From the NCBI GenBank assembly GCA_045597985.1, contig JAZLLE010000063.1, positions 13,973 to 77,972 of the forward strand: 64,000 nucleotides of DNA. The letters are read 5' to 3'. Each line of letters starts with the position of its first letter. The stretch's first letter is position 1. Under the pieces are notes generated by a model. That model was not told the origin of the DNA. It worked only from the letters and a program-made list of their open reading frames with translations, and made no database searches. The stretch is from Bacteroidaceae bacterium (GTDB taxonomy: Bacteria; Bacteroidota; Bacteroidia; Bacteroidales; Bacteroidaceae). Both the position numbers and the translations under genes were made by a program. Below are positions 21,953 through 48,043 of this stretch, piece by piece.

Positions 21953-21990
21953 GGAATGTTAGTAAAAACCTGATTATAATGATTACGGAG

Positions 21991-28479: not shown

Positions 28480-28482
28480 AGT

Positions 28483-29148: not shown

Positions 29149-32100
29149 TTACGCTGGTTTTATGGACGGCAGATAGTCCGGTGTGACGAGTCGTCGGTTT
29201 ATCAGTTCTGTCCGGATGGCTGTGTATCTGGTGGCGATGTTCAAGGCTTGTTCTGCTGGAATGTGCCTGAAAACATAATCAAGAGCGGGACAGAAGTATT
29301 TCAATTCCAGCGCCCTTACGTTATTGTCGGACAGCAGGACAAGTTCCATGAGCTGGAGAGTCTGCAAAGCCAGTTCATACAACCCGTCAGGATTGCCATT
29401 CACTGCGTGGCAGAACAAGTCCAGCACCTGTGCCATCATCAAATGCCGCATTGCAATGGAATCCTTAGGGTTCTTTTCAAGAATATCCAAGGTGGTGCTG
29501 CGTAGTTCTTCAATAGGTTCTTCTGTCAGCGAACCGCAGCTGGCAAGAATGTCCGCTCCGGACTTCAGCATAGTGGCAAGGCTGTGATGGAGCATGATGT
29601 CATCGGGATGCTTCCGATGTTCCTTACGGAGAATGTCAATGGCTTTTGCAATTGAATCGGAAGCCTGCTCCGGCCTTCCTGCAACAATCTGGCAACGAGC
29701 CTGATAATCCCAGACAAAAGAATATTGTCTGGCAATACCTGGTACTGAAAGATATCGCTCCATCTCATCGATCAGCTGTCCGTTCCACTCCATTGCCACA
29801 GCATTATCAAGACTCATCAGGATGCCACTTCTCCGTACCTTTGCCATATATAGATCCAGAAGCATCGCATCTGAAGGCTGATTTTGGGCGAGAAGCCTGA
29901 AGAGCTCAATTGAGACTCTGTTTTTTTCCAGACCGATTGTTATGTATCTTTTCTGCTGGGCTGCATTTGTCCCCATATCAATCCAGTTGGAAGAATGCTC
30001 ATCCAGACACGAAGCGTAGCTGTATGTCAGTGAGAATGTCGGACTGTTCAGGTATAGTATTCTTGTCTGCTGTTCCTGCAATCCCTTGAAATGAACGGCA
30101 TTCGACAGATTGCCGCAATAACGCTTCTCAAAGTCTGATCTGGCATCAAAATACAAGGCGTTGGCAAGAATGGCACAAAGGCTCTTGTGGGTAAGCGCGT
30201 TTATTTGCAGGAATGCCGACTCCATGGCTGAGATGATCTGTGCGGATATATTCGGATCTGAAGTCCTTTCAATCATACACTTTTCCAAGAAGATGAAATT
30301 CCAATACGAGATGCATAACAGGATCTGACTGTCATAGCTCTGAGATTCATGGAACCTTGCCAGTGAATCATAGAACGACTGTTCTGCATTCCCTTCAAAC
30401 AGGGACACCAGTTCAGGCCAAACGGTTTGTGTAGCAGAGCAGGCGATTTCATTCCTTGTCCGTTCAATGAAAAAAAACGTACAGGCATTTAGTTCGGCTC
30501 TGATGGCCTCATATATCATACCATCGGCATATTCAGGAAGGCTTTCAATTATCTTGCTCAACTGCAATGCCTTACCGTATAGGTAATTCCATGGCTTGGG
30601 CTGTTCGAGTGGATCAATGTCGCACGGTCGCATCCCTGACGTGTTACGAATGTCATTGTCGAACTTGATGACATCGGCGATATAATCCTCTTTAAGCAGA
30701 GGAGCAAATGTTTTTTTTACTGTTTGAAAGGAGAGCAGGGATACGTCTTCGCGATATGACTGCCTCAAGCGTTCAAGAGATGTGAAACCAAAAGACGCTG
30801 AATCCAATACTTCACGGGCGAGGCAGGCTTCTTCGTCGGTTGGGAATGATTCGACCAGATAATCCGGCAGCAGGCGGACATCAGGGGGAGTGTTCTCAAT
30901 GACTTCTTGCAGATAGAAGGAGATCTTTTCTGCCTCATCCACATCAGCGATGTTTCTCATCTTCGCAAAGTCATTCAAATCCAGTCCGATAAGATGATTG
31001 AGAACCATTATAGTCCACAATGGATTGCCGCATGCCGGTCTGCCGTCATCTCTCTTCCTCTCAGTCAGAGAGTCGAGAACTTTCCTTGGCAGTCCTTTGT
31101 GAGCTATTTGCGTGTACAGGGCGGCGATTTGTCTGGTAGATTCTTCATCCTGTTCTGGTATCGACAGATAGCGGGCGTTTTCGCCATCGCGCAGACAGGT
31201 GATGTCAATATTAGTCGTGAGGACGATGGAAAAGTTCTGCGTGTCAACCAAATCGGCAAGGATATATTTAAGATCTTTCAAGTACTGCACATTGTCTATC
31301 AGGAGCAGCACCCTTTTCTCCTGTTGTCCGGCGATTTCTGACAGATACTTCATCAGAATGCCGGGGTGAGCCTCTACCGACAGAGGCAGCTTCGGGAAGC
31401 CCTGTCCGGGAAGCATCCACAGAAACTTTTTCAGCATCACCTCCGCATAAGAGTCATACCCGGCTTTGCACGAGAAGTGCATAAGCGGAAGCCATTGTCC
31501 GCTATCCCGCAGCTCATTGAACAAGTGGGCAATCAGAGATGTCTTCCCCATACCGTCCCAGGCCTTGATTACAAGAGGCGTCGACGAAGAACCAAGGTGT
31601 GATGTCACCTCATTGAGAAATGCAGCATCGGGGACATAGTATGAATCCCTTTCTTCGGCGAAGGTAAAGTCTGCGCGGACCATATCGTCCAGCTCGGTGC
31701 AGTTCGCCGCATCAATGTCAATCTCCGACATTATGGTACGAACCAGTGGGTCGACTATGGATGTTATTGCCTTTTCATCAATTTCCAGTGACGTGCCATT
31801 CCAGCGGCAGTCATAATCTATGACATTACGCGTGTATCCGCTTGACTGATAGGTATCCCGGATTTTTCTCCGAAGACTGTCCAACTTGGCCACGTATCGG
31901 GGGTCGCTGTCACAGAAAATGGCTTTGGATACAGGATTCATCTTTTCATATACGTCCGGCTTTCTTAAAAAAAAGAAACTGCTTGAAAGAGATTTCCTGT
32001 CGTTCAAGACTCCGAACAGCATTTCTAATTCCGTGACACTACGTACATCACCCAGATCATCGCCCATCATGGCCCGTTCTTCGTCAGTCATGGAATCAAC

Positions 32101-32403
32101 GATGCCTTGCCAACGGTTTTCGGGAGGAATCCAACCATACCTGTCGCCGACGAAGCCGATGAAGAATGGTCGGGATGTTCGGATATAATCGAGGCAGTCA
32201 TTAAGAACCTTGCTCTCGCGTTCTTCTTCAGGTATGTCCTGTGTGTTCACACCCCAACGCAAGTCAACTATTCGGACTGCAGCATCTACATGCCTGAATT
32301 TCAGAGCACTTTCTATGGCAGGTTTCAAGACACTGAGCACAATGTCCCGTTCAGCGTCCATGTCCTTGAAAGTACTGCTTATAAAAATGCCTATAGTTTT
32401 CAT
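29149..32403 (-). CDS. DUF4062 (N-terminal) - P-loop STAND/NACHT-like NTPase - C-terminal helical (TPR-like) repeat protein
   Basis: A 1084 aa ORF. The N-terminus IFISSTFKDMDAERD...FFIGFVGDRYGWIP matches my recollection of DUF4062. Walker A is AWDGMGKTS and Walker B is RVLLLIDNV. The C-terminal ~550 aa is all-helical repeat-like sequence. Confidence 0.8.
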   Translation of the reverse strand: MKTIGIFISSTFKDMDAERDIVLSVLKPAIESALKFRHVDAAVRIVDLRWGVNTQDIPEEERESKVLNDCLDYIRTSRPFFIGFVGDRYGWIPPENRWQGIVDSMTDEERAMMGDDLGDVRSVTELEMLFGVLNDRKSLSSSFFFLRKPDVYEKMNPVSKAIFCDSDPRYVAKLDSLRRKIRDTYQSSGYTRNVIDYDCRWNGTSLEIDEKAITSIVDPLVRTIMSEIDIDAANCTELDDMVRADFTFAEERDSYYVPDAAFLNEVTSHLGSSSTPLVIKAWDGMGKTSLIAHLFNELRDSGQWLPLMHFSCKAGYDSYAEVMLKKFLWMLPGQGFPKLPLSVEAHPGILMKYLSEIAGQQEKRVLLLIDNVQYLKDLKYILADLVDTQNFSIVLTTNIDITCLRDGENARYLSIPEQDEESTRQIAALYTQIAHKGLPRKVLDSLTERKRDDGRPACGNPLWTIMVLNHLIGLDLNDFAKMRNIADVDEAEKISFYLQEVIENTPPDVRLLPDYLVESFPTDEEACLAREVLDSASFGFTSLERLRQSYREDVSLLSFQTVKKTFAPLLKEDYIADVIKFDNDIRNTSGMRPCDIDPLEQPKPWNYLYGKALQLSKIIESLPEYADGMIYEAIRAELNACTFFFIERTRNEIACSATQTVWPELVSLFEGNAEQSFYDSLARFHESQSYDSQILLCISYWNFIFLEKCMIERTSDPNISAQIISAMESAFLQINALTHKSLCAILANALYFDARSDFEKRYCGNLSNAVHFKGLQEQQTRILYLNSPTFSLTYSYASCLDEHSSNWIDMGTNAAQQKRYITIGLEKNRVSIELFRLLAQNQPSDAMLLDLYMAKVRRSGILMSLDNAVAMEWNGQLIDEMERYLSVPGIARQYSFVWDYQARCQIVAGRPEQASDSIAKAIDILRKEHRKHPDDIMLHHSLATMLKSGADILASCGSLTEEPIEELRSTTLDILEKNPKDSIAMRHLMMAQVLDLFCHAVNGNPDGLYELALQTLQLMELVLLSDNNVRALELKYFCPALDYVFRHIPAEQALNIATRYTAIRTELINRRLVTPDYLPSIKPA

Positions 32404-32411
32404 CTTCTATA

Positions 32412-33638
32412 TCAACAAATGGAGCTGAATGAAGGCCGGAATGCCTCTCTGATCCTCTGCGCGAAGGCATTCAAGACTTCTTGCTGGCTAAAACCGAATG
32501 CCTCAACTCCCATCTTGATCATCAGATTGACCTCTTCAGCCTTCAACTTGTTGTCGGAGAGGACTTGATCCATTATGAATTTGAACAGTTCAAACCGGAG
32601 ATTGGGATTTTTCTGCAGAATAGCAGCCAGACTTTCATTAAAGACTCTCACGACATCGCCATTCTCAACTTTTTTCAACATATTCATCGGAAACAGGGTG
32701 AATTGCGATATTCTCTGGAGAATGTTTTCCTTTTCATCTTTGGATACTTCACCATCTGCACTTGCGATCAGGAGGCCGGCCGCTGCCATGAAATATGGCA
32801 TTTTGCTATCTATTTCCGATGTGGTTACCCTGCTTATCATAAACACCAGTTTTTTCATAATCGAGTCAAGTTCCTCCTGAGATGAGGCTGTGGCGAAGGC
32901 ATTGATGGCTTCGACCCTGATTGCATTGGCAGGGTGGTCGTTATATTGGAGGGACAGGAATTGTCCTTCGTAGAAATGAGCGAGAAGCTTGTGGTTGTGT
33001 CGGACAAATGCATCTATGTCAATATTCATTCCCTTCAGGTTTAGCCCAGACTGCAACTTAAAGAAAGCTGAAATGCAGGCATCTCTGTTCCCTGCCGCAA
33101 GGTAGCCGAAACGGTCAGCCACCAGTTCGCATAACTGGTTCCACGCCCTGACTTTAAGCTGGAGAAGCAAAGGTGACATGGATTCCAATTCCGGAAAGAT
33201 AAAAGAAATCAGGTTCGACAGTTCCCCGTCTCGGTTTATCTGGTGACCAAGTTCATGGCCGACCACAAAGCGCAGTTCGTCTTCTGTCATAAGTTCGATA
33301 AGTGCGGAATTGAGTCTTATGATTATCGGACGGTCAGGAGCAGTGTCAACTAAAGTGCAGGCATTGGCGCTTATCGAGTTGGTAATATAGAACTCGGCCT
33401 GTCTGTCAAATCCAAGTTTTGAGATTGTGTCCTGCAATAACTGATACAGATGTGGCATTATTTCCGGCTCAACCTTCAGCATATCTATGGCAAGGCTGGT
33501 ACGTATCAGGCTGTCATTCTGACCAATGGCTCCGACAGACTGCATGACCTGATCTATTACATCGCCTTCAAGCGAATCGTGTATTCTCTGTTTGAGTTCG
33601 CGCTCATAATTGAGAAACGGAGAAAATCTGTAATTCAT
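32412..33638 (-). CDS. M48-like zinc metallopeptidase with C-terminal TerB-like domain
   Basis: HExxH in FVVGHELGHQINRD. The C-terminal part carries LLIASADGEVSKDEKENIL plus a second half-repeat (SDNKLKAEEVNLMIKM), typical of TerB-like domains. Confidence 0.75.
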   Translation of the reverse strand: MNYRFSPFLNYERELKQRIHDSLEGDVIDQVMQSVGAIGQNDSLIRTSLAIDMLKVEPEIMPHLYQLLQDTISKLGFDRQAEFYITNSISANACTLVDTAPDRPIIIRLNSALIELMTEDELRFVVGHELGHQINRDGELSNLISFIFPELESMSPLLLQLKVRAWNQLCELVADRFGYLAAGNRDACISAFFKLQSGLNLKGMNIDIDAFVRHNHKLLAHFYEGQFLSLQYNDHPANAIRVEAINAFATASSQEELDSIMKKLVFMISRVTTSEIDSKMPYFMAAAGLLIASADGEVSKDEKENILQRISQFTLFPMNMLKKVENGDVVRVFNESLAAILQKNPNLRFELFKFIMDQVLSDNKLKAEEVNLMIKMGVEAFGFSQQEVLNAFAQRIREAFRPSFSSIC

Positions 33639-33652
33639 AGGATAATACTTAC

Positions 33653-35398
33653 TTATTCTTTGTTCAAAATGTAATCCAGGGCATCAATCAGAATCCTATC
33701 CTTGTCCTTCTCTTCTTCAGGAAGGGACTCAAAAGGAACGATGTCGGGATGTATGAATCTTTTCTTGTCTTTGACCGGTCCTGGCTTGTAGCCCATAAGA
33801 AGGGCCGACATCACCCATCTCCTATGCTCTGCTTCGTAAACTGGCAACTGTTCTGAACTTATGTCAAAGCATTTAGTGCGTAGTGGAAGAGCGCTGGCGC
33901 AGAAGATGCTGGAGCATTTGTCTGCCTCACTGATCGGATACCATGCATCTTCAGGGGAGTCTGCAGGAGGATTCATATACGCCTTGTTGTAAATGAAATT
34001 CACTCTTTGTCCGAGTTTCAGCCTGTTTCCCATCAAAGGGTCGGTAATAGTTTTGTTTGCAAGGCCGAATATGGTGATGTCACCATACATTCCGGTTGAC
34101 AGAGCCAGTTGGATGATGTCATCGGAATCATTTAGATACAAGGCTGTCCGGGAAGTTGTATGGGAAATTTCAGGAAGATGCAGGGCACATTCCACTGCCT
34201 TATGCGAATCCTCGATGCAAATCAATATGCGCAATTCCGTTGATCCGTCTTTTGCTGATGATTGGATTATGTCCCTTGGAATGGAGTCGTTATGTCCAGC
34301 CTCAACAAATTCCCATTCAATGTCAAGATAATCATTTTCTGATGCAGGACTATGTTCTGTCCTGACTCCACTGCCGGATATGAAGGTGTAGTGAGACATC
34401 TCGAACAGGGTCGGATGAGCGGCGAGCATGGACTGACGGCATTCTGATATGTCGGGATCAATCATGGTGATGACGGTCCGACGCCCGAACCGTTTGAATG
34501 AAGGATAATGGCAGATATGGGCTATTTCGACAGCTGTTGAAACCGCTACCTTACCGGAACCGAAAATGACAAAGCGGGCCGCCTTGTCTTCCGATGTCCT
34601 GATGACCGGAAGGTAATCAGTGCCAACCATCAGTTGTTCGGCATAATATTCAAATTCATCAATGATGTTAACCTGCAGTCCCGATACGCAGCCGTCAGAC
34701 TCCGAAGCGTTCTTCATGTACTGGAACACTTCCTTGACTTCCTGCTCCCTGATTGAAAGGAAGCATGGAATTTTCCTGTCTGTCGCAGGAACGGCTCTCT
34801 TGAGGATAGACAGAGTCCTGAGGTTGAGCGCATCGTGATTCGGGTCGGAAGCATTGCCTGTCAAATAGATGCACTCTGCATCATATATACAGGTTGAAAG
34901 GATATCGTCCTCATCGGTTTGACTTCCATGGTAGTAATAGACCTCGTTCCCCAGTTCCGGATCGTTTTCACAGAGGACAACAACAGTCTTTCCACTGTCG
35001 AGAAGAGCCTGCACCACAACAGGTACACTGCCTCCCTCTCCGAAAACGACTACGTGTCCTTTCAGGCGATAGCGTCTTTCTCCATTCCTGACGGATTCAC
35101 TGATATTGTCGAAGATATTGGTGAATACGCTTATGAGAAGTGCGGAAAATACCAGAGTGCTTAAAATAGCGAGAATGATACGGAACCAGTAGTGCGAACC
35201 GGCTGCCAGGGAATAACCCGGGTCCAGAAAAACCGCCACCACATCCTCCCACGAGAAGTCACCTTCGTCAAAGAACAGTTTTACCGTCAGTATCGCTGAA
35301 AATATTATCAACAGCGTTATTGCACAGAGCCATCCAAGCTGCTTTCCACTGTCTTTTGCCAAAAGCCTGTCCAGTTTTCTCTTTAATGGGGATTTCAT
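33653..35398 (-). CDS. 2-TM membrane protein with two Rossmann/RCK-like domains and a C-terminal RyR domain
   Basis: The start is set at MKSPLKRK (35398); the longer ORF to 35509 would overlap the upstream gene. TM helices are LGWLCAITLLIIFSAILTVKLFF and FRIILAILSTLVFSALLISVF. VVVFGEGGSVPVVVQALLDSGKTVVVL is Rossmann-like. The C-terminus EHRRWVMSALLMGYKPG..KRFIHPDIVPFESLPEEEKDKDR matches the RyR-domain signature. Confidence 0.7.
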   Translation of the reverse strand: MKSPLKRKLDRLLAKDSGKQLGWLCAITLLIIFSAILTVKLFFDEGDFSWEDVVAVFLDPGYSLAAGSHYWFRIILAILSTLVFSALLISVFTNIFDNISESVRNGERRYRLKGHVVVFGEGGSVPVVVQALLDSGKTVVVLCENDPELGNEVYYYHGSQTDEDDILSTCIYDAECIYLTGNASDPNHDALNLRTLSILKRAVPATDRKIPCFLSIREQEVKEVFQYMKNASESDGCVSGLQVNIIDEFEYYAEQLMVGTDYLPVIRTSEDKAARFVIFGSGKVAVSTAVEIAHICHYPSFKRFGRRTVITMIDPDISECRQSMLAAHPTLFEMSHYTFISGSGVRTEHSPASENDYLDIEWEFVEAGHNDSIPRDIIQSSAKDGSTELRILICIEDSHKAVECALHLPEISHTTSRTALYLNDSDDIIQLALSTGMYGDITIFGLANKTITDPLMGNRLKLGQRVNFIYNKAYMNPPADSPEDAWYPISEADKCSSIFCASALPLRTKCFDISSEQLPVYEAEHRRWVMSALLMGYKPGPVKDKKRFIHPDIVPFESLPEEEKDKDRILIDALDYILNKE

Positions 35399-35466
35399 TG
35401 TTTTAAGTAGTTTCGTTTTGTTAAAATAGTATTTTTGCCCGAAAATAAAAGAGGATGTACCTGCCC

Positions 35467-36396
35467 TTAGCCGAAAATCTTGTAGAACAGAATTGTCAGG
35501 ACAGTACACGCAGCCGCACTTATGACAGGAAGCCCAATCGATGGACCGTCAAAGATCAGACATACCATAGTAAAGGCATAGAGGAACAACAATTCAGCAA
35601 CAACTCCTATAAGGACGGCAATTGTGCCGTCAATCACATAGTCGGTATATATCATCAGCAGCGGCAGAGCGATGATGAAAGGAACGGACACTAGTAAAAC
35701 AAGCAATGCGAGAAAGAACACGATTCTGGCTACCCAGGACACTATCCTTACAGTAAAATCTCCAAAATGATAATCCTTTTCTGTCTTTGCATCATCTTCT
35801 TTCAAATATGATATGTAGCCGTGCAGTTGAGAAGCTCTGACTCCATGCCTTACAAGAGAGGACATCCCCGGAATCAATGAATAAAACTTTGCTTTCTTGT
35901 CGGGAACCAGGGAATAGTCCACATTTGTGGCAAGGCTGTCCTTGAAAGTAATGGTCACGCTTTCCGTTGAAAGGCTGTCATCCTTAGCAAGGACTTTTAT
36001 GGGGAAAACCACCTCCGCTCCGCTCATTTCCGAAGGGTAAGCCAGCTCTCTTTCAATTTCTCTCAAGGATTTCCCGATAACCTTGGATTCAAGTGAATCC
36101 TTGCAGATCAGGGCTGCTTTGGTAGGGTCGAATCCCTTAATCTTATAGTAATGAGGCAGCTCGGATATTTTGACCCAGGAGCGTGTGCCGTTTTCCCATT
36201 GAACCAGAGCCTCCCTCTCAGATAGAGACTTCTTGTCCGAACGCTCTGCTAGAAGGTGCGCTTCTTTCTTCCCAACCATGCACTCCCAGACGGGATCGTC
36301 GGGAGCCTCGAACGGATTGCCGAGAGTCGCTCTGAAATAAAAGAATGCAGAAACGATTATGGCAAGACTGACAAAAGAACTGATTATATACTTCAT
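35467..36396 (-). CDS. Membrane protein of unknown family (N-terminal TM, ~200 aa extracytoplasmic domain, 3 C-terminal TMs)
   Basis: A 309 aa ORF with clear hydrophobic segments at both ends and no recognisable motif. It is co-directional with and tightly spaced within the operon. Confidence 0.6.
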   Translation of the reverse strand: MKYIISSFVSLAIIVSAFFYFRATLGNPFEAPDDPVWECMVGKKEAHLLAERSDKKSLSEREALVQWENGTRSWVKISELPHYYKIKGFDPTKAALICKDSLESKVIGKSLREIERELAYPSEMSGAEVVFPIKVLAKDDSLSTESVTITFKDSLATNVDYSLVPDKKAKFYSLIPGMSSLVRHGVRASQLHGYISYLKEDDAKTEKDYHFGDFTVRIVSWVARIVFFLALLVLLVSVPFIIALPLLMIYTDYVIDGTIAVLIGVVAELLFLYAFTMVCLIFDGPSIGLPVISAAACTVLTILFYKIFG

Positions 36397-36415
36397 TGCT
36401 TCATTTTATTCAAGC

Positions 36416-37725: not shown

Positions 37726-40217
37726 ATATTCATTCTTTTCATTTCGTTATAACCTGCATCCATATCCTCAAGCGTAATCGTGCACTCCTGGTCTTCGCTT
37801 GTATCACTTCCGGCATACAAAAGTCTCATATTATGGCAGTTGCGCACGTTGTCAAACAGGTTCCCGACATCGCGGGCATTTCCGAAATTGGCATCCCTGC
37901 AGACATATATCTCCTCGAATATCGCACAGGCGCGTGAATATGCCTCCGGATCCAGCCTGTACTCATTCTTCACCACGATGCGCCTGAATATCTCCATCAT
38001 CTGGGCCGCATCGTAATCCTCAAAGAATATCTTCTGGGTGAAGCGTGACTTGAGCCCGGAATTCGTTGCCATGAACGCCGTCATCTCCTTGGTGTAACCG
38101 GCCGCGATGCACACGAACTTGCCTTTATTGTTGAGGAGCAGCGGGACGAGGGTGCCGATACATTCGAGCCCAAAGTCATCCTGATGGCTGGTATTCAGGG
38201 TGTAAGCCTCATCTATGAAGAGAATGCCGCCCATTGCCCTCATTACGGCATCCCTGGTCTTGGAAGCTGTCTGGCCCTCATATTCAGCAACCAGATCCCC
38301 GCGCCCCACCTCAACGACTTCATCCGTCGCCAGGACTCCGAGGCTCTTAAGTATTTTACCCATCATCCTCGCAACGGTGGTCTTACCTGTTCCGGGATTG
38401 CCGAGGAACATATAATGGTCTGCGGGAATCTTTGGCGAACATCCTTTCCGTAGGGCTTTCTTCTGCTCCTGAATGATGTTGGCGGCAAGCAGTTTCAGGT
38501 ATCTTTTCACGCCATCGAGTCCTACAAGCTCATCAAGTTGCGACAGGACTTCATCTATACAGATATCCCTTGTCCCTTCTTCACCGACAATGTCCTCGTA
38601 TGTTAGGGTTTTTCCTTCATTCCTCCTGGTGGCGGCATCCAGTCCCTCAATTCGTTTCCCTCTCCTTTCCACTGCTGCTTCGAAGAAATTGCGGACATCA
38701 CGTCCGTTGCCGAACTGCTCGGAACGACGGTTGTACATCTGTTCCATTGGGATATGGAGCTTCTCGATTGCCTCATCCGTAAGGGAGAACCCGGCCTTGG
38801 TTGCGTTCAGCAAGAAAATCTTCTCAAGTTCGACAGGTTTGTAGTCGGGGAATTCTATTGTTTTGTTGAAACGCGACTTTAGTCCGGAATTTGCCTTCAT
38901 AAAATCGCCCATCTCCCGTTTGTACCCCGCAATGATGCAGACGAACTGGCCTTTGTATGTCTCAAGAAGAGGCAGCAGGGTGTTGATACCCGCCTGACCG
39001 TACTGTCCGTTTGCCAAACCGTAGGCCTCATCAATGAAAAGGACTCCGCCCATGGCCTTGTCAACGACATCCCGGACGTTCTTCTCAGTATCTCCGATAT
39101 ACTGGCCTATAAGTTCCGAAGGATTAGTCTCTATGAGCTGACCTTTGGGAAGAGCCCCGATTGCGGCAAGTATTTCTGCGAATTTTCTGGATATCGTAGT
39201 CTTGCCCGTTCCGGGATTTCCCGTGAACACATAGTGGTCGTTGACAGTCACCCTTGCATCCGGTCCCTGCTCTTCCTGCACAATGTGGATGTCGTTGATG
39301 ATTGTTCTGATTTCGTTTTTGACATTTTCAAGTCCGATGAAGTTGCTGAGGTCCTCCCAAATTTCCGTTTCGGAACGCGGGACGAAAACCTTGCCCTTGA
39401 CGTCATCAGGAATTATCGTATCTGTCCCGCCCCTGTTGAACATATTGGTGGCAATCTCTTCTGCCTTGCTTACGGCTAGATGACCGTTCCCCGGTGTCCC
39501 CTCTCCCAGGTGCACCATCCATTCATAATGCCCCTTAAGTCTGGTGACGGCGTCATCAGTCATATTCAGCTTAAACCTTTTTTTCAGGATTGCGGCAGTT
39601 AGAGCGGCCAGAACATCCTCATCAATGTTGACGAGCCGGAAATTGAACTCAAAGAGGTTCGCGACTCCACGATTGTAGGACAGGAAACTCTCCATATCAT
39701 TGTAGAGTCCTGTCATAATGACAACGGGCAACTTTGACGCACCCTTGGTCATCCTCGCAAACAGGGGGTCCAGTGAGGTGATCTCCGACGACCTGGCCCC
39801 ACATAGGATCTTGTGAACGTTTGTAATGACCAGCACGCCTTCGGAAATGCCCGACAATTGTTTGTCCAGATCCGAGGCCCAGTTGTCATAGTCAGCTGCA
39901 TCCACTTCAACAACCTGCTTCTTATCGACTATTCCGGCCCCGGCTGCCATATCAATTATTTCATTGGCGATGAATTTCTTGCCGCTTCCCTGGGGGCCGA
40001 GGATAAGGCTGTCCAGTCCGACTCTTGTGCCTGTCCCTGATATTTTGAGATGAGACGCCAGCTTAAGTCTTTCCTGGAATTTTTTAATTTCGTTTTCCAG
40101 ACACTCTTTACCGAAATATCCTTCCCTTGAGACAATTATCTCGAGGGGCTCTCCGCATTTCTTGCAGAATCTGGCGGACGGACGGTTCTGGGCACCGCAT
40201 TTGTTACAATTACTCAT
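37722..40217 (-). CDS. Zinc-ribbon protein with three tandem CbbX/SpoVK/EccA-type AAA+ modules (first one degenerate)
   Basis: The N-terminus has CNKC..CKKC. Module 1 has GPQGSGKKF and no DE Walker B (GVLVITN). Modules 2 and 3 have GNPGTGKTT and LFIDEAY, plus SGLKSRF sensor/arginine regions. Confidence 0.85.
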   Translation of the reverse strand: MSNCNKCGAQNRPSARFCKKCGEPLEIIVSREGYFGKECLENEIKKFQERLKLASHLKISGTGTRVGLDSLILGPQGSGKKFIANEIIDMAAGAGIVDKKQVVEVDAADYDNWASDLDKQLSGISEGVLVITNVHKILCGARSSEITSLDPLFARMTKGASKLPVVIMTGLYNDMESFLSYNRGVANLFEFNFRLVNIDEDVLAALTAAILKKRFKLNMTDDAVTRLKGHYEWMVHLGEGTPGNGHLAVSKAEEIATNMFNRGGTDTIIPDDVKGKVFVPRSETEIWEDLSNFIGLENVKNEIRTIINDIHIVQEEQGPDARVTVNDHYVFTGNPGTGKTTISRKFAEILAAIGALPKGQLIETNPSELIGQYIGDTEKNVRDVVDKAMGGVLFIDEAYGLANGQYGQAGINTLLPLLETYKGQFVCIIAGYKREMGDFMKANSGLKSRFNKTIEFPDYKPVELEKIFLLNATKAGFSLTDEAIEKLHIPMEQMYNRRSEQFGNGRDVRNFFEAAVERRGKRIEGLDAATRRNEGKTLTYEDIVGEEGTRDICIDEVLSQLDELVGLDGVKRYLKLLAANIIQEQKKALRKGCSPKIPADHYMFLGNPGTGKTTVARMMGKILKSLGVLATDEVVEVGRGDLVAEYEGQTASKTRDAVMRAMGGILFIDEAYTLNTSHQDDFGLECIGTLVPLLLNNKGKFVCIAAGYTKEMTAFMATNSGLKSRFTQKIFFEDYDAAQMMEIFRRIVVKNEYRLDPEAYSRACAIFEEIYVCRDANFGNARDVGNLFDNVRNCHNMRLLYAGSDTSEDQECTITLEDMDAGYNEMKRMNI

Positions 40218-42735
40218 TGATGATTCCTCTTTCTTTCCTGGTTATCTGAATTCCGGACTCTACGGCGTCAGGCGTGTCCGTTATTTTATTGATATAATAC
40301 TGCCCAACCATAAGGACCCAGAAAATGGCAATGAATATCAGCAGCGTCTTGCGACGTTTCTTCAAAGTATTCCTGTAATCCTCAATGGCGTCATCATCAA
40401 CATAGGCACTCAATGAAGAAGTGAATGTCTCTTCGTTGTTGAAGGCGAAATACAGCGGTTCCAGAGTCAATTCCATGAAACCTGGCCCACCTTTCATTCT
40501 GTCAACATCTCCCGCACGGCCCACAAATACGACCTTGACCAAGAAAAGTATGATAATGGTCAGGATGACGGCTGCATAAATCCATGTCAGATAGGCTCCC
40601 AGCAATTTCACAATCACAAAAAGAAGTATGCCCAAAACCAGTCCGGATATGATTGGGACAAAACATCCGTCAACATCAAATAGGAACGAAGCTACTATGC
40701 CCAGAGCAACTCCTATAAGTATGAAGGTCCAACCGAAATTGATTCCACTTATATTGATTTCAGGGTATTCCGCTACAAGGTTGATGGCGCTTATCATAAG
40801 GATGACTGCCGGTATCCCAGCAAGCACCAATGAAAGGATGCGCTGTATCAGGCCTCTGGCGGCAAGTGGTCCTGCACCGCGTCCGGCTTTGTCGGCTGTA
40901 TCGCCTGCAATGCAGACAGCTAAATCGAAGCGCCGGCCCTCAACGCAGTCAGGACAATATTTGCGATACTCTTTCAGATAATCGGCAAGCAATTTCTCAT
41001 AGGTGTATTGTCTTGCCATGTCAATATACGGGTTTTCGTGGTACTTTACCGCTAAAAAGCCGCGTATTCCTGCCGGCTCGTCAGGATAGTCGTAAGTCGG
41101 GGTATGCTCGAAACCGACGATGGTCTTCATCATTGCTGTCTGTTCCAGATAATCAGCATCCTTTGGACCGGCTTTTTTCTTATTGTCCCGGCTGTCGAAA
41201 TTAAGGCAGTACTTCAACCAGTCAAGTTGTTTAGTGAATCTATTCCCCTTGTGTCTGAAGAACCAGACGAGATAACTTTTTTCCGAATACAATTCAAAAC
41301 TTGAGATCAGACGCACAAAGATGCCGGATCCGTTTATTATTCTGGAACATTCAGAGTCCCATTCCTTCAGAGCCCTCTTCCTGTCACCTCCGAATCTTCC
41401 GTAGAAAATGTTATATGCTTCATTGAGAACCGCTCCGATAGACTCTCCGGTCATAGCGTATCCGGGATTATCCGGAGTGCGCAAGTTCAGGTCATACAAA
41501 GGATTCAGAATGTGAAGGGCGCACAACATTCCCGAAATTTCATCCTTCGGGAAATCCTTCTCCACTATGCGGTCTATCTCAATTTTCAGCTCCGGTCGTT
41601 TTTCCAGCCATTTGGACACCTGTCCGCTGTAAAGGTAGGATCTGGCCAGTTTCTGGTCTTTAAGCATGAATGCAGCCAACTCCTGCGGCGAATGTGCCAC
41701 CTGGTTTTTCTGACCATTGAAAATGACTTCGAAGCCCCCTGCGTACACTGAAACCTCATCTTGTTTCTGAATTGTGCGTCTGATTTCAGCTAATCCCCAC
41801 CTGTGTGCGGGGTCCTTGACAAGGAGACCACGGATAATCCTGTTCAAAGGATCGGGAATATCCCCGTCAACCTTAATCTTGTCATTCCGTTTCTCAATCG
41901 CCAGTTCGGCTTCTCTCGCATACAGGTTCTTCTCCCCTTTCCACAGACTGAGGGCTGTCATTCCAAGTGAATAGAAATCCGATGCCGGTGTCAAAGTACA
42001 ATAAGTCTTCCCTCCGATGATCGCCACATTGGAAGGATCATACACTTCGGGAGCGGCATAAATCGGTGTCCTGTTCTGAACTGTGGACACTTTCCCGTTT
42101 TCAAAAAAGTCCGCGAACCCGAAATCGCAAAGAACGCAATCCCAAGTATCTTTGTCCGTTATGAGAATGTTGGCCGGTTTGACGTCCTTGTGTATGAAAC
42201 CATTCCTGTGACAGGCATCAAGGCACAGCGCAATTTTGGCTACTATGTGCGTGATAGCTTCGACATTTCCCCTCAGATCGTATTGTGCGGCAGCTCCAAG
42301 TGGATAGTATTTCATCAGCTCGAAATCACATTGTATGCCGTCAAAGTCCCTGGTACCAAAGTCTATGACGTCAGCCACGTAACCCTTGCCGGACATTGCC
42401 TTGACCTTTTTCAGGATCCCGGCATTGCACTTGACATTAGGCTTATAACGTTTGAGGGCAGTTCCATCATTCTGGATGATGAGCTCCCCCTCGGAGCCAC
42501 TAACTGAGGGACCTGACCCGCGTCTCATATCCGGTCCGGGTTGAGGTGCAACGGCCTCGGGGTCTATGGCAGAGCCTTGGGGTGTATATTGCACCGCCTC
42601 AGGATCTATGGCGGAACCCTGAGGGGTATATAGCATATCTTCGGAATCCAAGGCCGTCCAAAGGTCGGTATTCAGCACCAGTTCCGGACCGTTTTTGCCT
42701 CCGGAATCCTGATTATCGTCAAGTTGGTCTGCCAT
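40210..42735 (-). CDS. Membrane-anchored Hanks-type Ser/Thr protein kinase (non-RD) with large unknown middle domain and ~5 C-terminal TMs
   Basis: Catalytic loop HKDVKPANILI, plus DFGFA and AAPEV motifs. There is an N-terminal tandem YTPQGSAIDPEAV repeat. Five hydrophobic helices lie in the last ~230 aa. Confidence 0.85.
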   Translation of the reverse strand: MADQLDDNQDSGGKNGPELVLNTDLWTALDSEDMLYTPQGSAIDPEAVQYTPQGSAIDPEAVAPQPGPDMRRGSGPSVSGSEGELIIQNDGTALKRYKPNVKCNAGILKKVKAMSGKGYVADVIDFGTRDFDGIQCDFELMKYYPLGAAAQYDLRGNVEAITHIVAKIALCLDACHRNGFIHKDVKPANILITDKDTWDCVLCDFGFADFFENGKVSTVQNRTPIYAAPEVYDPSNVAIIGGKTYCTLTPASDFYSLGMTALSLWKGEKNLYAREAELAIEKRNDKIKVDGDIPDPLNRIIRGLLVKDPAHRWGLAEIRRTIQKQDEVSVYAGGFEVIFNGQKNQVAHSPQELAAFMLKDQKLARSYLYSGQVSKWLEKRPELKIEIDRIVEKDFPKDEISGMLCALHILNPLYDLNLRTPDNPGYAMTGESIGAVLNEAYNIFYGRFGGDRKRALKEWDSECSRIINGSGIFVRLISSFELYSEKSYLVWFFRHKGNRFTKQLDWLKYCLNFDSRDNKKKAGPKDADYLEQTAMMKTIVGFEHTPTYDYPDEPAGIRGFLAVKYHENPYIDMARQYTYEKLLADYLKEYRKYCPDCVEGRRFDLAVCIAGDTADKAGRGAGPLAARGLIQRILSLVLAGIPAVILMISAINLVAEYPEINISGINFGWTFILIGVALGIVASFLFDVDGCFVPIISGLVLGILLFVIVKLLGAYLTWIYAAVILTIIILFLVKVVFVGRAGDVDRMKGGPGFMELTLEPLYFAFNNEETFTSSLSAYVDDDAIEDYRNTLKKRRKTLLIFIAIFWVLMVGQYYINKITDTPDAVESGIQITRKERGIINE

Positions 42736-43469
42736 TATTCTTCAGCTTTGATTTTTTTTTTGACAACGCGTTCCTGCAGCACCTTGTCCTCATACACCCA
42801 GGTTCCTCCCCGGAAGGGCTCGGCGCACTCGCTCGGCTGTCTGTGATGGCAGCCGCAGAAATTGCAAATCCATCCCACTGGTGATTTGATCCTGACTTCC
42901 TCCTGCAATACGGTGGTGACGGCGATGTTTCTCGCGGAATAATAGTTGAACTGCTGCTGAGGTGTGCTCCCTGCGGGAGGAAGCATTTGGGCGAACAGCT
43001 CTTCTATATCCTTCACCGTCCGGAGATATTCTTCCTGCAGTCCAGGAGCAGCGGCTTCAGTGAAGGCGATATCAGACGAGAACATCTTGAGAAACTCCAG
43101 AGTCCCTTCGCTTGCCTCTGCCGCCGTTCCGGAAATCCGCTCTTTTATTTTCACGGCTTTCTCTATAAGGCGGCTGACTTGTTGGTAAACAGGATCACGC
43201 TTTGCCTTTTCAATGGCGGCTTCCGCAGCCCTGTTCAACGGGGCATTGCATCTGCTGCAAAATGAACGATAGTTTAACGTACCGCATACCGGGCATACAG
43301 TGCCGCCGAGGGGCATTCTACATTCGTCGCATACGGTCTGTCCGGGGACTGTCCGAGCTCCGCAAAAACTACACTCGCCTTCAGGCGGCTTGCCCGTCTC
43401 ATGTCTTCCGGGGGACTTTGTTACTGTCCGCACGGTCTCTTCCCATTTTTGCCTGCCTTCCATATCCAA
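42735..43469 (-). CDS. Zinc-ribbon protein (double zinc ribbon N-terminal, extra CxxC near the C-terminus)
   Basis: CSFC..CDEC..CPVC..CSRC, then a helical linker, then WICNFCGCHH. Its stop overlaps the kinase start (TAATG). Confidence 0.65.
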   Translation of the reverse strand: MDMEGRQKWEETVRTVTKSPGRHETGKPPEGECSFCGARTVPGQTVCDECRMPLGGTVCPVCGTLNYRSFCSRCNAPLNRAAEAAIEKAKRDPVYQQVSRLIEKAVKIKERISGTAAEASEGTLEFLKMFSSDIAFTEAAAPGLQEEYLRTVKDIEELFAQMLPPAGSTPQQQFNYYSARNIAVTTVLQEEVRIKSPVGWICNFCGCHHRQPSECAEPFRGGTWVYEDKVLQERVVKKKIKAEE

Positions 43470-43499
43470 ATCAGTCCATAGCGCGAATGTTTATCCTAC

Positions 43500-45254
43500 T
43501 CAACTCCAGGGATCGGAGATTTCCATATCAGCTATCTCGTCAAGGCAGCTGTTCCCGCCTTTGGAATCATCCTGTTTCCCGTTGCCCTGTTTGATGCCAT
43601 TGAATTTGGGTATACAATACTTTTCTATTTCGTTCTTGAAATCGTCGAGCAGACCGTCGGTGTATGCCTGGATGACATCTACCAATTTAGCCTCATCGCC
43701 AAAGCGGTATGCGCACAGAATGCAGAAAGCATGGAACTTTTCGCTTACCTTCTTAGGGCAATGGCCTTCGGAAATCATCTGTGCCATCATGCTGTAGCAT
43801 TCGGAACTGCCATATGCAGACCCTATGTTGAACCACTTCCATGCAGCTTCATCGTCCTCATCGAAACCGAGTGTACCGTAATAATAGTATTTGCCCAGAA
43901 TCGCCGGAGCAATATTGTCTCCCAACCTTGATGCTTTCTCCAAATCGGCTTTAATTTCTGCCGTCCTGCGTACTTTTTCCTTCGAGGTCAGGTCATCATA
44001 GCCATCTTCACCTCTCAGCCCCCGCATAGCGTAACTCCAGGCATCATTGTGTTCGATTCCAATCCCGATGTATTGGTCGAACATCTCCTTTTCGACAATA
44101 TTACCATCGTTATCACAACACATCATATACGCCAGTCTTGACAATGACTCAAAATATCCCATGCTGACGGCCCGAATATATGCGTCTTCCGCCTTTTCTT
44201 TCTGACCTGCTTCCTGATAGGCGCGTCCTAACAAGTCGTAAGCTTCCGGATCGTAATTGAAAATGTCCTTTTCATCCTCTCCTGTTGCGTCTTTCAGCAT
44301 GTCAGTCATGGTGTCGATGACTATCTGCGGATTAGCAGATTGCCCATTCATGCCATAAATAATATCCTTCCACAGAAAATAAAAAGCTTTAATGCTTCTC
44401 TTCTTCCCAGCTTCGTTCATAAGACTATTGTATTTGTCGGGATCTGCCTCCTCATAGTAGCCGTCACGGGCAAGAAGCGCCAGACCGCAGTATGCTTCAC
44501 TCAGACCTCGAGCGGCAGATGCCTCGAAAAGAGCACGTGTCTTTCTGAGGTTTTCACAGCTGGGACGTACAAGCTGGTAGTAGCGTCCAAGGGTATATTG
44601 GGCAATGGCGTCACCATCGTCGGAAAGTTTTTTCAGTTCGCCTACCTGTTTGTCGGTGAGCATGAACATAGGATATACATAATTTGGGATACGCAGGAAC
44701 AACCGGCGAGATGTCGAATCAGCTATAGACGCATACAACAGCTGATCGAAGACGCCTGACATATCGTTCTTTTTGAAACACTCAGCACTCTTTTGCAGAC
44801 GACGTTGAAGTTCTTCACGGAACTCTTCTTCTGTCATTTCGCCGTTGCTTTCCGGCTCACTTTCTTCTTCCGGCTCGCTTTCTCCTATTTCCTCCATAAG
44901 TTCATTAAATAAGATATCTACAGTCTCCTTGCCGTCATAGCCGAATTTCTCACAGATATGCTCGGCAAAGCGTCTTTTCTGCTCGTCGATAGTGCCTTCT
45001 GAGAATATCATGGAAACAAGGTTTTTCATATATTCCACCTTGTCTTCATCTGACTTAGGCATATCAATGACCAATTTCTCACTGTCCTTCATACATTGGT
45101 CAAGTTCCCACTGAGTCAGATTGAATTCCTTTGCAACCAGCAGTATGTAGTCTCTTTCGTTCTCGGTCATCTGACCGTCAAGACGAGACATACTTATTAG
45201 ATTTGTGACATGAGCCAGTTGCGCACTTTTCTTAGTTCGATAGTTGAAAGCCAT
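43500..45254 (-). CDS. TerB-like N-terminal domain plus Sel1-like repeat (SLR) protein
   Basis: The start is set at MAFNYRTKK (45254) because a -7 box lies at 45292-45299. The TerB-like half-repeats are SRLDGQMTENERDYIL and IFSEGTIDEQKRRFAEHI. An acidic linker follows, then Sel1-like repeats (AQYTLGRYY, GLALLARDGYY, GKYYYYG). Confidence 0.75.
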   Translation of the reverse strand: MAFNYRTKKSAQLAHVTNLISMSRLDGQMTENERDYILLVAKEFNLTQWELDQCMKDSEKLVIDMPKSDEDKVEYMKNLVSMIFSEGTIDEQKRRFAEHICEKFGYDGKETVDILFNELMEEIGESEPEEESEPESNGEMTEEEFREELQRRLQKSAECFKKNDMSGVFDQLLYASIADSTSRRLFLRIPNYVYPMFMLTDKQVGELKKLSDDGDAIAQYTLGRYYQLVRPSCENLRKTRALFEASAARGLSEAYCGLALLARDGYYEEADPDKYNSLMNEAGKKRSIKAFYFLWKDIIYGMNGQSANPQIVIDTMTDMLKDATGEDEKDIFNYDPEAYDLLGRAYQEAGQKEKAEDAYIRAVSMGYFESLSRLAYMMCCDNDGNIVEKEMFDQYIGIGIEHNDAWSYAMRGLRGEDGYDDLTSKEKVRRTAEIKADLEKASRLGDNIAPAILGKYYYYGTLGFDEDDEAAWKWFNIGSAYGSSECYSMMAQMISEGHCPKKVSEKFHAFCILCAYRFGDEAKLVDVIQAYTDGLLDDFKNEIEKYCIPKFNGIKQGNGKQDDSKGGNSCLDEIADMEISDPWS

Positions 45255-45291
45255 TTGTTTAGAAATTAATGAGAGATTAGCTACATGTTTG

Positions 45292-45299
45292 CAAATATA
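45292..45299 (-). promoter_or_regulatory. -7 promoter box TATATTTG for the ten-gene operon
   Basis: The minus strand reads cttATATTTGcaaac about 40 nt upstream of the ATG at 45254 and fits TAnnTTTG. Confidence 0.45.
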
Positions 45300-45999
45300 A
45301 GAATTATTAGAAAACACATTCACTAATTCCTATCTTATTTTGGACCATCGGATGCCCTATTTGGCGTCCTCACGCAGTTTCTCTTTATATTTCCCGTCAT
45401 AGTCATCACCTCTCGGAACAAGGTACTTGAAGAACACGCAGTCGTAAATGATCTGTATGTGGAAGATGAAGAACGTACGGAGGCCCACGTTTTGTATCAA
45501 AACTGTAATCTGAGAGTGTTAGCCAGTTGAACAATAAGCTCGCATACTATGATGGAGCGGTGTTGTATCAATAAGGAATATTTACATATTTCGCTCAGCT
45601 CATGATGTCGCTCTGACTGTTTGCCTGATGTAAATATGAGGATTTTACCTCCATATTACAGGCGCGTCGGATGTGTCGCCTAAGACGCCCGTTTCCTGGG
45701 TTCAATAGATGACAAGTGGAGGTCATCTATAGAACCTTCGAGACCCCCTTCTTTTATGAGCGTTTTATGAATTTGAATAGATTGAGGCCAGAACTGGCAT
45801 CCGAACCCTCTTGTCATATTTCATATTCTGCTTGTACATTCTTGTCGCGAGTTGTAAAATATCCTAACAAATCTTTATCCCACACTTTTTGGGCGAGCCG
45901 TTTTGGCCAGTCCGATAGCGAACATTATCATTACGTTATTTTATAGCTTGAGAAAACTGTCCCCGTTTTTGTATAACTTCGTGGCAAATTTCTTTTTAG

Positions 46000-47910: not shown

Positions 47911-47968
47911 TACAGGCCGCAGAATGCAAAACAAAAAAGACCGGCCATACAATGACCAGTCTCACGAG

Positions 47969-48043
47969 TGTTTCGTCGCGGATTCGAACCGCGGACCTCT
48001 TGCGTGTGAAGCAAGCGCTCTAAACCGGCTGAGCTAACGAAAC
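47969..48043 (-). tRNA. tRNA-Val (anticodon CAC)
   Basis: The reverse complement folds as acceptor GTTTCGT/ACGAAAC, D arm GCTC..GAGC, anticodon stem CTTGC/GCAAG with loop TTCACAC, and T arm CGCGG-TTCGAAT-CCGCG. Confidence 0.9.

Follow-up and report, generated by a model that had tools for sequence, protein, structure and literature searches.

Threonine phosphorylation reportedly controls the type VI secretion system (T6SS) through a pathway of PpkA, PppA and Fha1 with ClpV, which Mougous et al. described in 2007. Kinases and PP2C phosphatases are also said to be paired in the TerY-P triad, a conflict module that Anantharaman et al. predicted by comparative genomics in 2012. Here we analyze a ten-gene locus that resembles both in part. 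It occupies the minus strand at 29149-45254 of a 64-kb stretch of contig JAZLLE010000063.1, from a gut or rumen Bacteroidales genome. We call this whole stretch the window, count all positions in it, and number the genes of the locus g1 to g10 from 5' to 3'.

Other proteins of the locus have relatives in systems with a published description. The GAP1-N2 theme joins a kinase, a PP2C phosphatase and a vWA domain (PMC7159879). AAA+ ATPases belonging to the SpoVK-EccA-like clade are marked by AAA_lid_6, a GY sensor-1 and a sensor-2 arginine, and have been argued to be chaperones with narrow, dedicated substrates (PMC11513918). The DUF4062 domain has been identified as a TIR-like NADase, renamed NIR, that acts in abortive anti-phage defense (10.64898/2026.05.01.722283, 10.64898/2026.06.25.731849, 10.64898/2026.09.04.749371). 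According to these 2026 preprints, NIR executes defense in Swarozyc, Evangelion, DUF4062-Avs2, Vulcan and Vesta; its catalytic glutamate is E97 in KpSwz, E108 in PsAvs2 and E1008 in hTEP1; and it adjoins STAND NTPases in the eukaryotic proteins TEP1, NWD1 and NPHP3. In type X Thoeris, a validated system, the TIR protein ThsB is combined with the ion-channel effector ThsK (10.64898/2025.12.03.692087). Finally, GsuK is a Geobacter channel with two RCK domains, for which the PDB holds NAD-bound and ADP-bound entries.

We find that the locus is a composite of three parts and not one indivisible ten-gene system. Part A is a core, g2-g6, made up of a multi-Zn-ribbon protein, a membrane serine/threonine kinase, a Zn-ribbon protein with concatenated AAA+ modules, a Zn-ribbon-FHA protein and a PP2C phosphatase. 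Part B is a separable pair, g10 and g8, which is also found without the core. Part C consists of g1, g9 and g7, which are floating, exchangeable accessories. An original prediction, made from the letters alone, had treated all ten genes as a single system; the invariable linkage of g2-g6 supports that claim in part, but g1, g7, g8, g9 and g10 come and go.

The T6SS pathway is the closest characterized logic to part A. Both have a membrane serine/threonine kinase (with a periplasmic sensor in T6SS), an opposing PP2C phosphatase, an FHA scaffold and an AAA+ ATPase. However, g4 belongs to the SpoVK/CbbX/EccA clade and is not of the ClpV/ClpB type, and the locus has additional Zn-ribbon proteins, a threonine-repeat array and no T6SS structural genes. 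With TerY-P and GAP1-N2, the core shares an active kinase (at times fused to a Zn ribbon or a transmembrane segment) linked to PP2C, a setting in variable conflict or stress operons and an association with TerB, but an FHA adaptor and concatenated AAA+ modules take the place of vWA, and the phylum is another. At its N-terminus, g10 carries a DUF4062 domain that keeps the position of the catalytic glutamate in the alignment with TEP1. A putative P-loop STAND-type NTPase and putative repeats follow, an order that resembles the NLR-like or Avs-like plan of PsAvs2 and TEP1. Whereas the described NIR systems consist of a single gene (Vesta of two), g10 shares its putative operon with genes for a channel-like protein and an M48-TerB protein and with the kinase/AAA+ cassette. 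Type X Thoeris offers an analogy at the level of architecture only: it shares the logic of an NAD-consuming enzyme with a membrane effector, but g10 is a NIR-STAND protein, and NIR domains have so far been reported as NAD+ hydrolases and not as signal producers.

A five-gene core is conserved across Bacteroidales

We examined gene neighborhoods anchored in turn on four different genes of the locus. With g4 as the anchor, homologs at 73%, 51%, 41% and 38% identity (loci L004, L001 to L003, L005 and L006, and L007) all lay in the same core order of DZR protein, kinase, multi-AAA+ protein, DZR-FHA protein and PP2C. The kinase, AAA+, FHA and PP2C genes were present in every one of these contexts, and the g2 family was also found in each of the four distinct lineages (4/4).

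The scan anchored on g5 covered one genome per species and returned at least 80 FHA loci; most of these are generic FHA loci, and the scan serves as a control and not as a census. Among the matches listed, five are true g5 orthologs, from Cryptobacteroides, Prevotella/Prevotellaceae and other Bacteroidales, and their loci carry g3, g4 and g6 in every case (5/5) and g2 in 4/5. In none of the 75 generic-FHA control loci among the matches listed did we find a homolog of g2 or g4, though a kinase or PP2C gene is often present. Thus, while the triad of kinase, PP2C and FHA is common, the Zn-ribbon protein and the concatenated AAA+ protein are specific to this system.

A metagenome scan anchored on g2, using an alignment of six g2 sequences, yielded 80 loci from the rumen and the human gut. 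Clustering g2 at 80% identity reduced these and the earlier loci to 38 lineages. Wherever at least 8.5 kb of sequence is available downstream of g2, the genes g3, g4, g5 and g6 lie there on the same strand (26/26 lineages). In the lineages L105 and L107 the order is permuted to g2-g4-g5-g6-g3, which suggests selection on linkage rather than mere inheritance. A single cluster of the AAA+ protein has 1105 members in human-gut data. The g2 family is small: out of 1.84e9 representatives, 169 clusters (50% identity) belong to it at E ≤ 1e-10, and none of these carries a name.

The original prediction depended on its orthologs keeping company in other genomes beyond chance, and this census of neighborhoods found the core orthologs together far above that expectation. 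We conclude that the five-gene core is deeply conserved and is undescribed in the libraries and literature searched.

The core proteins keep their characteristic motifs

The domain assignments of the original prediction were reproduced with Pfam and NCBIfam, with TerB in g1 and g9 and RyR in g8 scoring under the Pfam cut-offs, and its transmembrane counts were reproduced by hydropathy. The first core protein, g2 (42735-43469), carries a double Zn ribbon (DZR in Pfam). Its AlphaFold2 (AF2) model, with a predicted local distance difference test (pLDDT) score of 78.5, comprises Zn ribbons and a helical hairpin and closes with a beta-hairpin that binds Zn. In the family alignments (A2-A4), this C-terminal domain has a conserved C-x2-C...H...C pattern and the motifs LPPAGSTPQ and LGGTW. 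Against the PDB, g2 had neither a fold match (best E = 0.76) nor a sequence match; weak profile matches to Zn-ribbon ribosomal proteins and to a coiled coil were counted as no match.

The kinase g3 (40210-42735; Pkinase E = 1.7e-23) consists of a threonine-repeat tail, the kinase domain, a conserved post-kinase domain of ~290 residues and five C-terminal transmembrane helices, which hydropathy places between residues 633 and 815. Across 27 orthologs, the HKDxKPxN, DFG and APE motifs and the beta3 lysine are invariant or nearly so, and two activation-loop threonines are also conserved. Eight of the 27 kinases end in a C-terminal peptidoglycan-binding domain (PG_binding_1 in seven, PG_binding_2 in one), which fits the odd number of transmembrane helices and a periplasmic C-terminus.

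The threonine-repeat tail of g3 is a feature that the original prediction had missed. In the window, a 42-nucleotide tandem repeat in two copies (42554-42635; Tandem Repeats Finder score 108) encodes QYTPQGSAIDPEAV twice within the N-terminal tail. At least three periodic threonines precede the kinase domain in 24 of the 27 orthologous kinases. The repeat units include APQGTAT, APQKTAV, APEKTAT, GSTVAA and DKTIRSG, mostly APQGTAT/APQKTAV heptads, and range from 2 to 9 copies across kinases; many of these arrays were never equaled by shuffles of the same tail. We propose that the array is a phospho-threonine docking platform for the FHA protein g5. In g5 (37219-37725; FHA E = 1.8e-12, DZR), the phospho-threonine-binding motifs GR, SxxH and TNGT are invariant (alignment A1), and the linker between the double Zn ribbon and the FHA domain is variable and rich in threonine, proline and glutamine.

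The AAA+ protein g4 (37722-40217; AAA, AAA_lid_6 and TIGR02881) starts with a Zn ribbon, after which come a degenerate AAA+ module and two modules that are intact and belong to the SpoVK/CbbX/EccA clade. It scored 466.6 bits, summed over three stretches, against the SpoVK model TIGR02881, above the cut-off of 422.95, and matched AAA_lid_6 at E = 7e-24. Walker A motifs are located at residues 74 (GPQGSGKK, without a Walker B), 333 and 606, and the Walker B motif LFIDEAY at residues 392 and 665. Modules 2 and 3 have GNPGTGKT, LFIDEAY, an AGY sensor-1 and a GN(G/A)R sensor-2, and a Y-I-G pore loop is present in module 2. All 27 orthologs (27/27) have the C-x2-C...C-x2-C ribbon and the Walker-A-only module, followed by 2, 3, 4 or 5 intact modules in chains of 820-861, ~1100, 1394 and 1938 residues, respectively. 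AAA_lid_6, AGY and GN(G/A)R are thus shared with the SpoVK/CbbX/EccA clade. In contrast to that clade, g4 is concatenated in one chain (up to about six modules in relatives), has a Zn ribbon in place of the TPR or beta-domains, and is always linked to a kinase, an FHA protein and PP2C, in Bacteroidota.

The longest of these chains belongs to a core variant on the Bacteroidales chromosome OZ245940.1 (L012, 549-13114). Its AAA+ protein of 1938 residues has six Walker A and five Walker B motifs, enough modules for a one-chain ring. No g2 homolog was detected in this variant. The core is followed there by DUF6272, a SiaC-family phosphoprotein and a gene of 178 residues, which resembles a partner-switch module.

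The last core protein, g6 (36416-37222; PP2C_2 E = 2.5e-8), matched the Stp1/IreP phosphatase model at E = 2e-34, under the equivalog cut-off, and the usual metal-binding aspartate motifs can be read in its sequence. An open reading frame (ORF) of 325 residues antisense to g6 (36359-37336, plus strand) is unsupported and almost certainly spurious. With the kinase, PP2C, FHA and AAA+ motifs kept, the core is predicted to be catalytically competent.

A predicted NADase is paired with a channel-like protein

The final gene of the locus, g10 (29149-32403), encodes a DUF4062/NIR domain, a putative P-loop STAND NTPase and putative helical repeats. DUF4062 (PF13271) matched at 43.2 bits (cut-off 24.7; E = 4e-11). 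The N-terminus also aligned with the NIR domain of TEP1 (PDB 11gz_A, E = 6.5e-16), with RSVTELE set against RSVTEME. The candidate catalytic residue is Glu125 (32029-32031). It aligns with chain residue 113 of the TEP1 construct (896-1113), which by our own count we equate with E1008. In the P-loop region, AAA_22 reached 28.7 bits (cut-off 27) and NPHP3_N 16.5 bits, under its cut-off, and the Walker A GMGKT and Walker B LLLID are readable. Some 700 residues of putative helical repeats lie beyond the P-loop. The STAND and repeat part (residues 252-1084) gave no PDB sequence match, no NCBIfam match and no PADLOC Avs match. From these alignments, g10 is a new member of the just-described NIR family and a predicted NADase.

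The gene g8 (33653-35398) lies two genes upstream. Its mechanical ORF runs to 35509, with an ATG start at 35398. The AF2 model of g8 (pLDDT 88.3; predicted TM-score, pTM, 0.81) begins with an outer helix, a pore helix, a loop and an inner helix, as in a two-helix P-loop channel-like pore, and continues with two Rossmann (RCK) domains in tandem and a C-terminal RyR domain. In Foldseek, the best match was GsuK (E = 3e-11, probability 1.0, ~536 columns), followed by Slo1/BK, MthK and CASTOR; the TM-scores are only ~0.4 because the domain orientations differ. RyR scored 25.8 bits on g8 itself (cut-off 27.4), and precomputed RyR matches exist in orthologs. Among 33 homologs, G61 and the glycine-rich loops of both Rossmann folds are invariant, and D59 is nearly so. 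The model thus points to an RCK-gated, GsuK-like P-loop channel with an added RyR domain. Like GsuK, MthK and Slo, g8 has the pore topology and two tandem RCK domains. It differs from them in its filter, FLDPGYS (35210-35230), in the extra RyR domain, and in a context that is of immune type and not one of ion homeostasis. Having FLDPGYS in place of the canonical TVGYG suggests a different or non-selective conductance.

DUF4062 or TIR_2 genes occur within a few genes of g8 and its relatives in eight of nine contexts. DUF4062 lies beside or a few genes from g8 in the window, L004, L175, L009, L170, L171 and L172, and TIR_2 genes adjoin a g8-like channel in L168. The sole context without a TIR-like neighbor is L173, which holds a distant, 25%-identical relative of g8. 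The original prediction had stated that no classical toxin genes are present. This statement is outdated: DUF4062 has since been shown experimentally to be an NADase effector, g10 keeps the glutamate, and g8 models as an RCK-gated channel, so that this part of the locus belongs to an already described kind.

Two of these loci have further features. The L168 island (7791-20893) contains, in order, an M48 gene (with a Zn ribbon), a Zn-ribbon protein, a PrsW protease, the channel, TIR_2, a gene of 170 residues, TIR_2, caspase C14 and TPR-CHAT; the M48, Zn-ribbon and channel themes recur in it without the kinase/AAA+ core. L170 has a row of three ADP-ribosylglycohydrolase genes (16376-21237, minus strand) at a distance of ~4 kb from its NIR-STAND/channel/DUF1963 module; this connection with ADP-ribose metabolism may be a coincidence.

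Accessory genes turn over rapidly around the core

The three remaining genes encode the accessories. The first, g1 (43500-45254), is a 584-residue protein with a TerB-like N-terminus and Sel1/TPR repeats, both weak matches in Pfam. Its mechanical ORF reaches a GTG at 45323, with an ATG start at 45254. TerB scored 17 bits on g1, below the Pfam cut-off, and 37 bits on the L001 ortholog; SEL1L repeats match g1 among PDB sequences, and the L004 ortholog is 59% identical. By hydropathy, g7 (35467-36396) is a protein with four transmembrane helices, one N-terminal and three C-terminal. It had no match in Pfam, PADLOC, NCBIfam, PHROGs or the PDB. Orthologs of g7 occur in L001, L008, L106, L142 and L175, and the gene follows PP2C in several lineages with a three-module AAA+ protein. 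The product of g9 (32412-33638) is a soluble M48-type HExxH metallopeptidase (M48 E = 4e-12) with a C-terminal TerB domain (20.6 bits, below the Pfam cut-off), no transmembrane helix by hydropathy and no sequence relatives in the PDB. Its orthologs are mostly found upstream, between g1 and g2, at times on the opposite strand, and once downstream (L160). TerB domains are part of Shango, Bunzi and Dionysus, which are validated systems, and have been suggested to survey membranes there, and DUF1963 is the TYPP domain, predicted to be chaperone-like.

In the 18 lineages with both flanks visible, we counted g1-like TerB/Sel1 genes in 8 and g9-like M48-TerB genes in 6, together with a small TerB protein in 4 and DUF1963, a family of ~200 residues and g7 in 3 each; these counts use a 10-kb flank, in which genes downstream of a long AAA+ gene are under-represented. 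Linkage is invariable for g2-g6 alone, and g1, g7, g8, g9 and g10 vary in presence, position and strand. In L004, nine of the ten genes occur in unchanged order, but g7 is absent, and DUF1963 and a gene of 215 residues are inserted after g1. Identity to L004 is 76-85% for g8-g10 and 59-73% for g1-g6. Another relative, L175, in which g8 is 88% identical, is without g9 and gives way to ribosomal protein genes where the window has DUF3109. The core adjoins g8 in the window, L004, L175, L009 and L170, and partly in L171. Whereas g9 lies upstream of g2 in the core operon elsewhere, in the window it is placed between g8 and g10. Accessory turnover is rapid even among close relatives, and the genomic flanks differ in every lineage.

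In L171 (6910-14964), a DUF4062-channel-DUF1963 series converges on M48-TerB, PP2C and DZR-FHA genes. The place of the kinase and AAA+ genes is taken there by one helix-turn-helix, one HipA toxin and one RHS gene, an arrangement that resembles a rearranged or decayed core.

The gene set matches no named system in the libraries searched

Domains were searched with Pfam and NCBIfam and defense models with PADLOC-DB v2 and NCBIfam 20; we also used PHROGs, the PDB and Foldseek. PADLOC identified no complete system among the ten proteins. Its only matches were generic ones to kinases (mad6, MkoA, PD-T4-6) and AAA proteins (IetA, TRIP13); six of the ten proteins had no match, and those of g8 and g9 were marginal (E ~0.007-0.01). 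The NCBIfam models MAD6 and IteA scored far under their cut-offs, and PHROGs gave generic domain matches only.

Tests for a secretion apparatus were likewise negative. T6SS component families were absent from the 20 genes scanned and from related loci, with the TagH model at 20.8 bits. As a test for EccA of type VII secretion (T7SS), TIGR03922 scored 409.2 bits on g4, under its cut-off of 466.65, and the N-terminus of g4 is a Zn ribbon and not TPR; no FtsK/EccC gene was found in the window flanks or related loci. In the ten genes, Pfam matched neither vWA nor TerA/C/D/Z, and found only the TerB-like domains of g1 and g9. The original prediction noted an absence of secretion-apparatus and vWA genes; the former holds for all the genes scanned, the latter for the ten genes. 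Its view that the set matches no named system is borne out in PADLOC, NCBIfam and the searchable literature, where we found no description of the core gene set. Neither the g10/g8 pairing nor, most notably, the five-gene core has a description in the libraries and literature searched.

Layout and surroundings of the locus

Direct reading of every junction verified the ten minus-strand ORFs, with junctions ranging from -8 to +68 nucleotides. A gap of 30 nucleotides separates g1 from g2. The stop and start codons of g2 and g3 overlap as TAATG, g3 and g4 overlap by eight nucleotides, ATGAGTAA, and ATGA overlaps join both g4 to g5 and g5 to g6. The remaining gaps measure 19 (g6/g7), 68 (g7/g8, the longest junction), 14 (g8/g9) and 8 nucleotides (g9/g10). 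A putative -7 promoter box of the Bacteroidetes type, TATATTTG (45292-45299, minus strand), matches TAnnTTTG 38 nucleotides upstream of the g1 ATG. It is the sole minus-strand copy within 29-46 kb and one of 16 in the entire window. A terminator scan found no terminator-like hairpin within any of the locus junctions. A sigma-70 promoter scan was set aside as not meaningful for Bacteroidota. Transcription of the ten genes as one transcript is plausible.

On one side, g10 converges on a DUF3109 gene (28483-29064, plus strand), in agreement with the original reading. On the other, a gap of 745 nucleotides (45255-45999) separates g1 from a divergent DsbD gene. This gap is long by the standard of this genome and holds no ORF of at least 80 residues and no Rfam match, which leaves the -7 box as its sole explained content. 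In other lineages, the flanking genes of the window were never found beside the system. The G+C content of the locus (30000-46000) is ~47%, compared to ~51-56% in the left flank and ~51% in the right; this mild offset is compatible with horizontal acquisition but does not prove it.

Farther out, the left flank (19278-29064, plus strand) contains an RND efflux operon, with an outer-membrane factor, a membrane-fusion protein and two tandem AcrB-type pumps, and then DUF3109. There are two tRNA-Val genes in the window, at 4082-4157 (plus strand; anticodon GAC) and 47968-48043 (minus strand; anticodon CAC), the second of which is between the DsbD and iPGM genes, ~2.7 kb from the locus. Immediately 5' of an outer-membrane beta-barrel ORF (51287-51766) is a DUF805b RNA motif (Rfam RF02914; 51227-51261, plus strand), which scored 39.2 bits (gathering score 35.6).

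Discussion

We favor the reading that the locus is a modular, phospho-regulated conflict island, most likely anti-phage, with three layers that correspond to parts A, B and C and are probably co-transcribed. We hold this reading with about even confidence. The signs of defense are the NIR-STAND protein g10 with its glutamate, the GsuK-like g8, the TIR and DUF4062 neighbors, TerB, the accessory turnover and the differing flanks.

In this conflict island, layer A would be a self-contained threonine-phosphorylation switch coupled to an AAA+ chaperone. The kinase g3 would sense an envelope or membrane perturbation, a role suggested by the ~30% of its orthologs that end in a periplasmic peptidoglycan-binding domain. 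Once activated, g3 may phosphorylate its own N-terminal threonine-repeat array, on whose phospho-threonines the FHA domain of g5 would dock. The Zn ribbons of g2, g4 and g5 resemble one another and could bring the AAA+ protein to the kinase complex, where g4 would remodel a dedicated target, and the phosphatase g6 would reset the switch. In layer B, g10 would sense a trigger via its repeats, oligomerize through the STAND module and hydrolyze NAD+. The tandem RCK ring of g8 may respond to changed NAD+ or ADP-ribose, or to another product of g10, and open a non-selective cation pore; the membrane would then depolarize and the infected cell abort. Layer C (g1, g9 and g7) would supply exchangeable membrane-surveillance, adaptor or processing accessories. 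A phospho-relay from the core may license the effectors.

Several observations weigh against this reading. No gene of the core is recognizable as a toxin, and at many loci, L005, L007 and L010 among them, the five genes stand as bare cores amid housekeeping genes. The characterized SpoVK/EccA members chaperone envelope or secretion substrates and not immune effectors (PMC11513918). PADLOC recognizes no complete system, and the g2 marker was not found in collections of plasmids, phages and viral contigs, so there is no sign of mobility. The pore loop of g8 is not canonical. Functional coupling of layers A and B is unproven because part B stands alone in L172, where DUF4062, Sel1, DUF1963, a gene of 470 residues and the channel lie amid housekeeping genes with the core absent, and because an inverted Sel1 gene of 417 residues separates g7 from g8 in L175. 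In favor of coupling, the two layers recur side by side in several lineages, and g9 is interleaved in the window.

These observations lend weight to two other explanations. One holds that two or three independent defense systems (the core; NIR-STAND and channel; possibly M48-TerB) adjoin one another, with co-transcription in this genome alone and no cross-signaling. In addition to L172 and L175, the latter also lacking g9, it draws on the closer resemblance of g8-g10 than of g1-g6 to L004, on the position of the longest junction at g7/g8, and on the single-gene NIR proteins Swarozyc, Evangelion and Avs2, which defend alone (2026 NIR preprints). However, DUF4062 and the channel follow the core in at least four lineage groups (the window with L004 and L175; L009; L170; partially L171), with differing gene order, and g9, a core-operon accessory elsewhere, sits between g8 and g10 with short gaps on either side. 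We consider this explanation somewhat unlikely. The other takes the core as housekeeping envelope homeostasis of the PknB/PstP/FhaA-FhaB kind, in which a peptidoglycan-sensing kinase controls a chaperone similar to SpoVK, this chaperone activates an enzyme of cell-wall or envelope biosynthesis, and the NADase and channel genes are mere neighbors. The PG_binding domains of the kinases, the bare cores, the lack of a toxin in the core and the abundance of the system in gut and rumen Bacteroidales all suit it. Additionally, the best NCBIfam match of g5 is FhaB/FipA, far under the cut-off, and SpoVK promotes MurG activity while EccA1 has been linked to mycolic-acid synthesis (PMC11513918). What speaks against envelope homeostasis is variability: the accessory sets (TerB, M48, DUF1963/TYPP, NIR-STAND, channel) differ between close relatives, the AAA+ modules number from 3 to at least 6, the threonine repeats range as widely as described above, and the genomic location changes with every lineage. 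Moreover, no peptidoglycan-synthesis gene (RodA, PBP) is linked to the core, unlike in the actinobacterial operon. We regard this explanation as fairly unlikely, yet as an alternative to be taken seriously.

That the ten genes form one obligate ten-component system is very improbable. The genes are tight and co-directional behind a single -7 box, and L004 keeps nine of them in order, but only g2-g6 are universal; L004 does without g7 and has two added genes, L175 does without g9, and the same ten-gene set was found in none of the 37 other g2 lineages (0/37), nor in any other locus examined. Least credible is threonine-phosphorylation control of a secretion machine, whether of the T6SS PpkA/PppA/Fha1/ClpV or the T7SS EccA type. 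It would account for the same four types of part (membrane kinase, PP2C, FHA protein and AAA+) and for the 409 bits of TIGR03922, but that EccA score is under the cut-off, and we found no Hcp, VgrG, TssB/C, EccC or FtsK-type gene in the ten genes, the ten flanking genes or the related loci.

Beyond the conflict-island reading, the core may be an unrecognized machine for immunity or membrane surveillance that is widespread in gut and rumen Bacteroidales. Graded autophosphorylation of the threonine array would recruit FHA adaptors and an AAA+ remodeler, and in some genomes the machine would directly license an NLR-like NADase and a RCK-RyR channel gated by NAD or ADP-ribose. We think this bolder version rather doubtful. 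If it is true, the machine would be a bacterial parallel to the NAD-metabolite control of animal ryanodine-receptor channels.

Bacteroidales dominate gut and rumen microbiomes, and their phage-defense and serine/threonine-phosphorylation biology is poorly charted. The tandem threonine-repeat tail of the kinase and the concatenated SpoVK/EccA-clade AAA+ protein with its variable number of modules make this cassette unusual. If the core serves envelope homeostasis, it would give Bacteroidota their first described FhaA/PknB-like module, one with an AAA+ output. Taken as a whole, the locus is a strong candidate for a new bacterial immune system, though an unproven one. It joins the NADase domain NIR (DUF4062), discovered only just now, with a partner that resembles an RCK/RyR channel, for which we offer the hypothesis of a new effector pairing that couples NAD+ hydrolysis to ion-channel gating. 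Such a pairing would extend the architecture of TEP1, NWD1 and NPHP3 to a multi-gene bacterial context.

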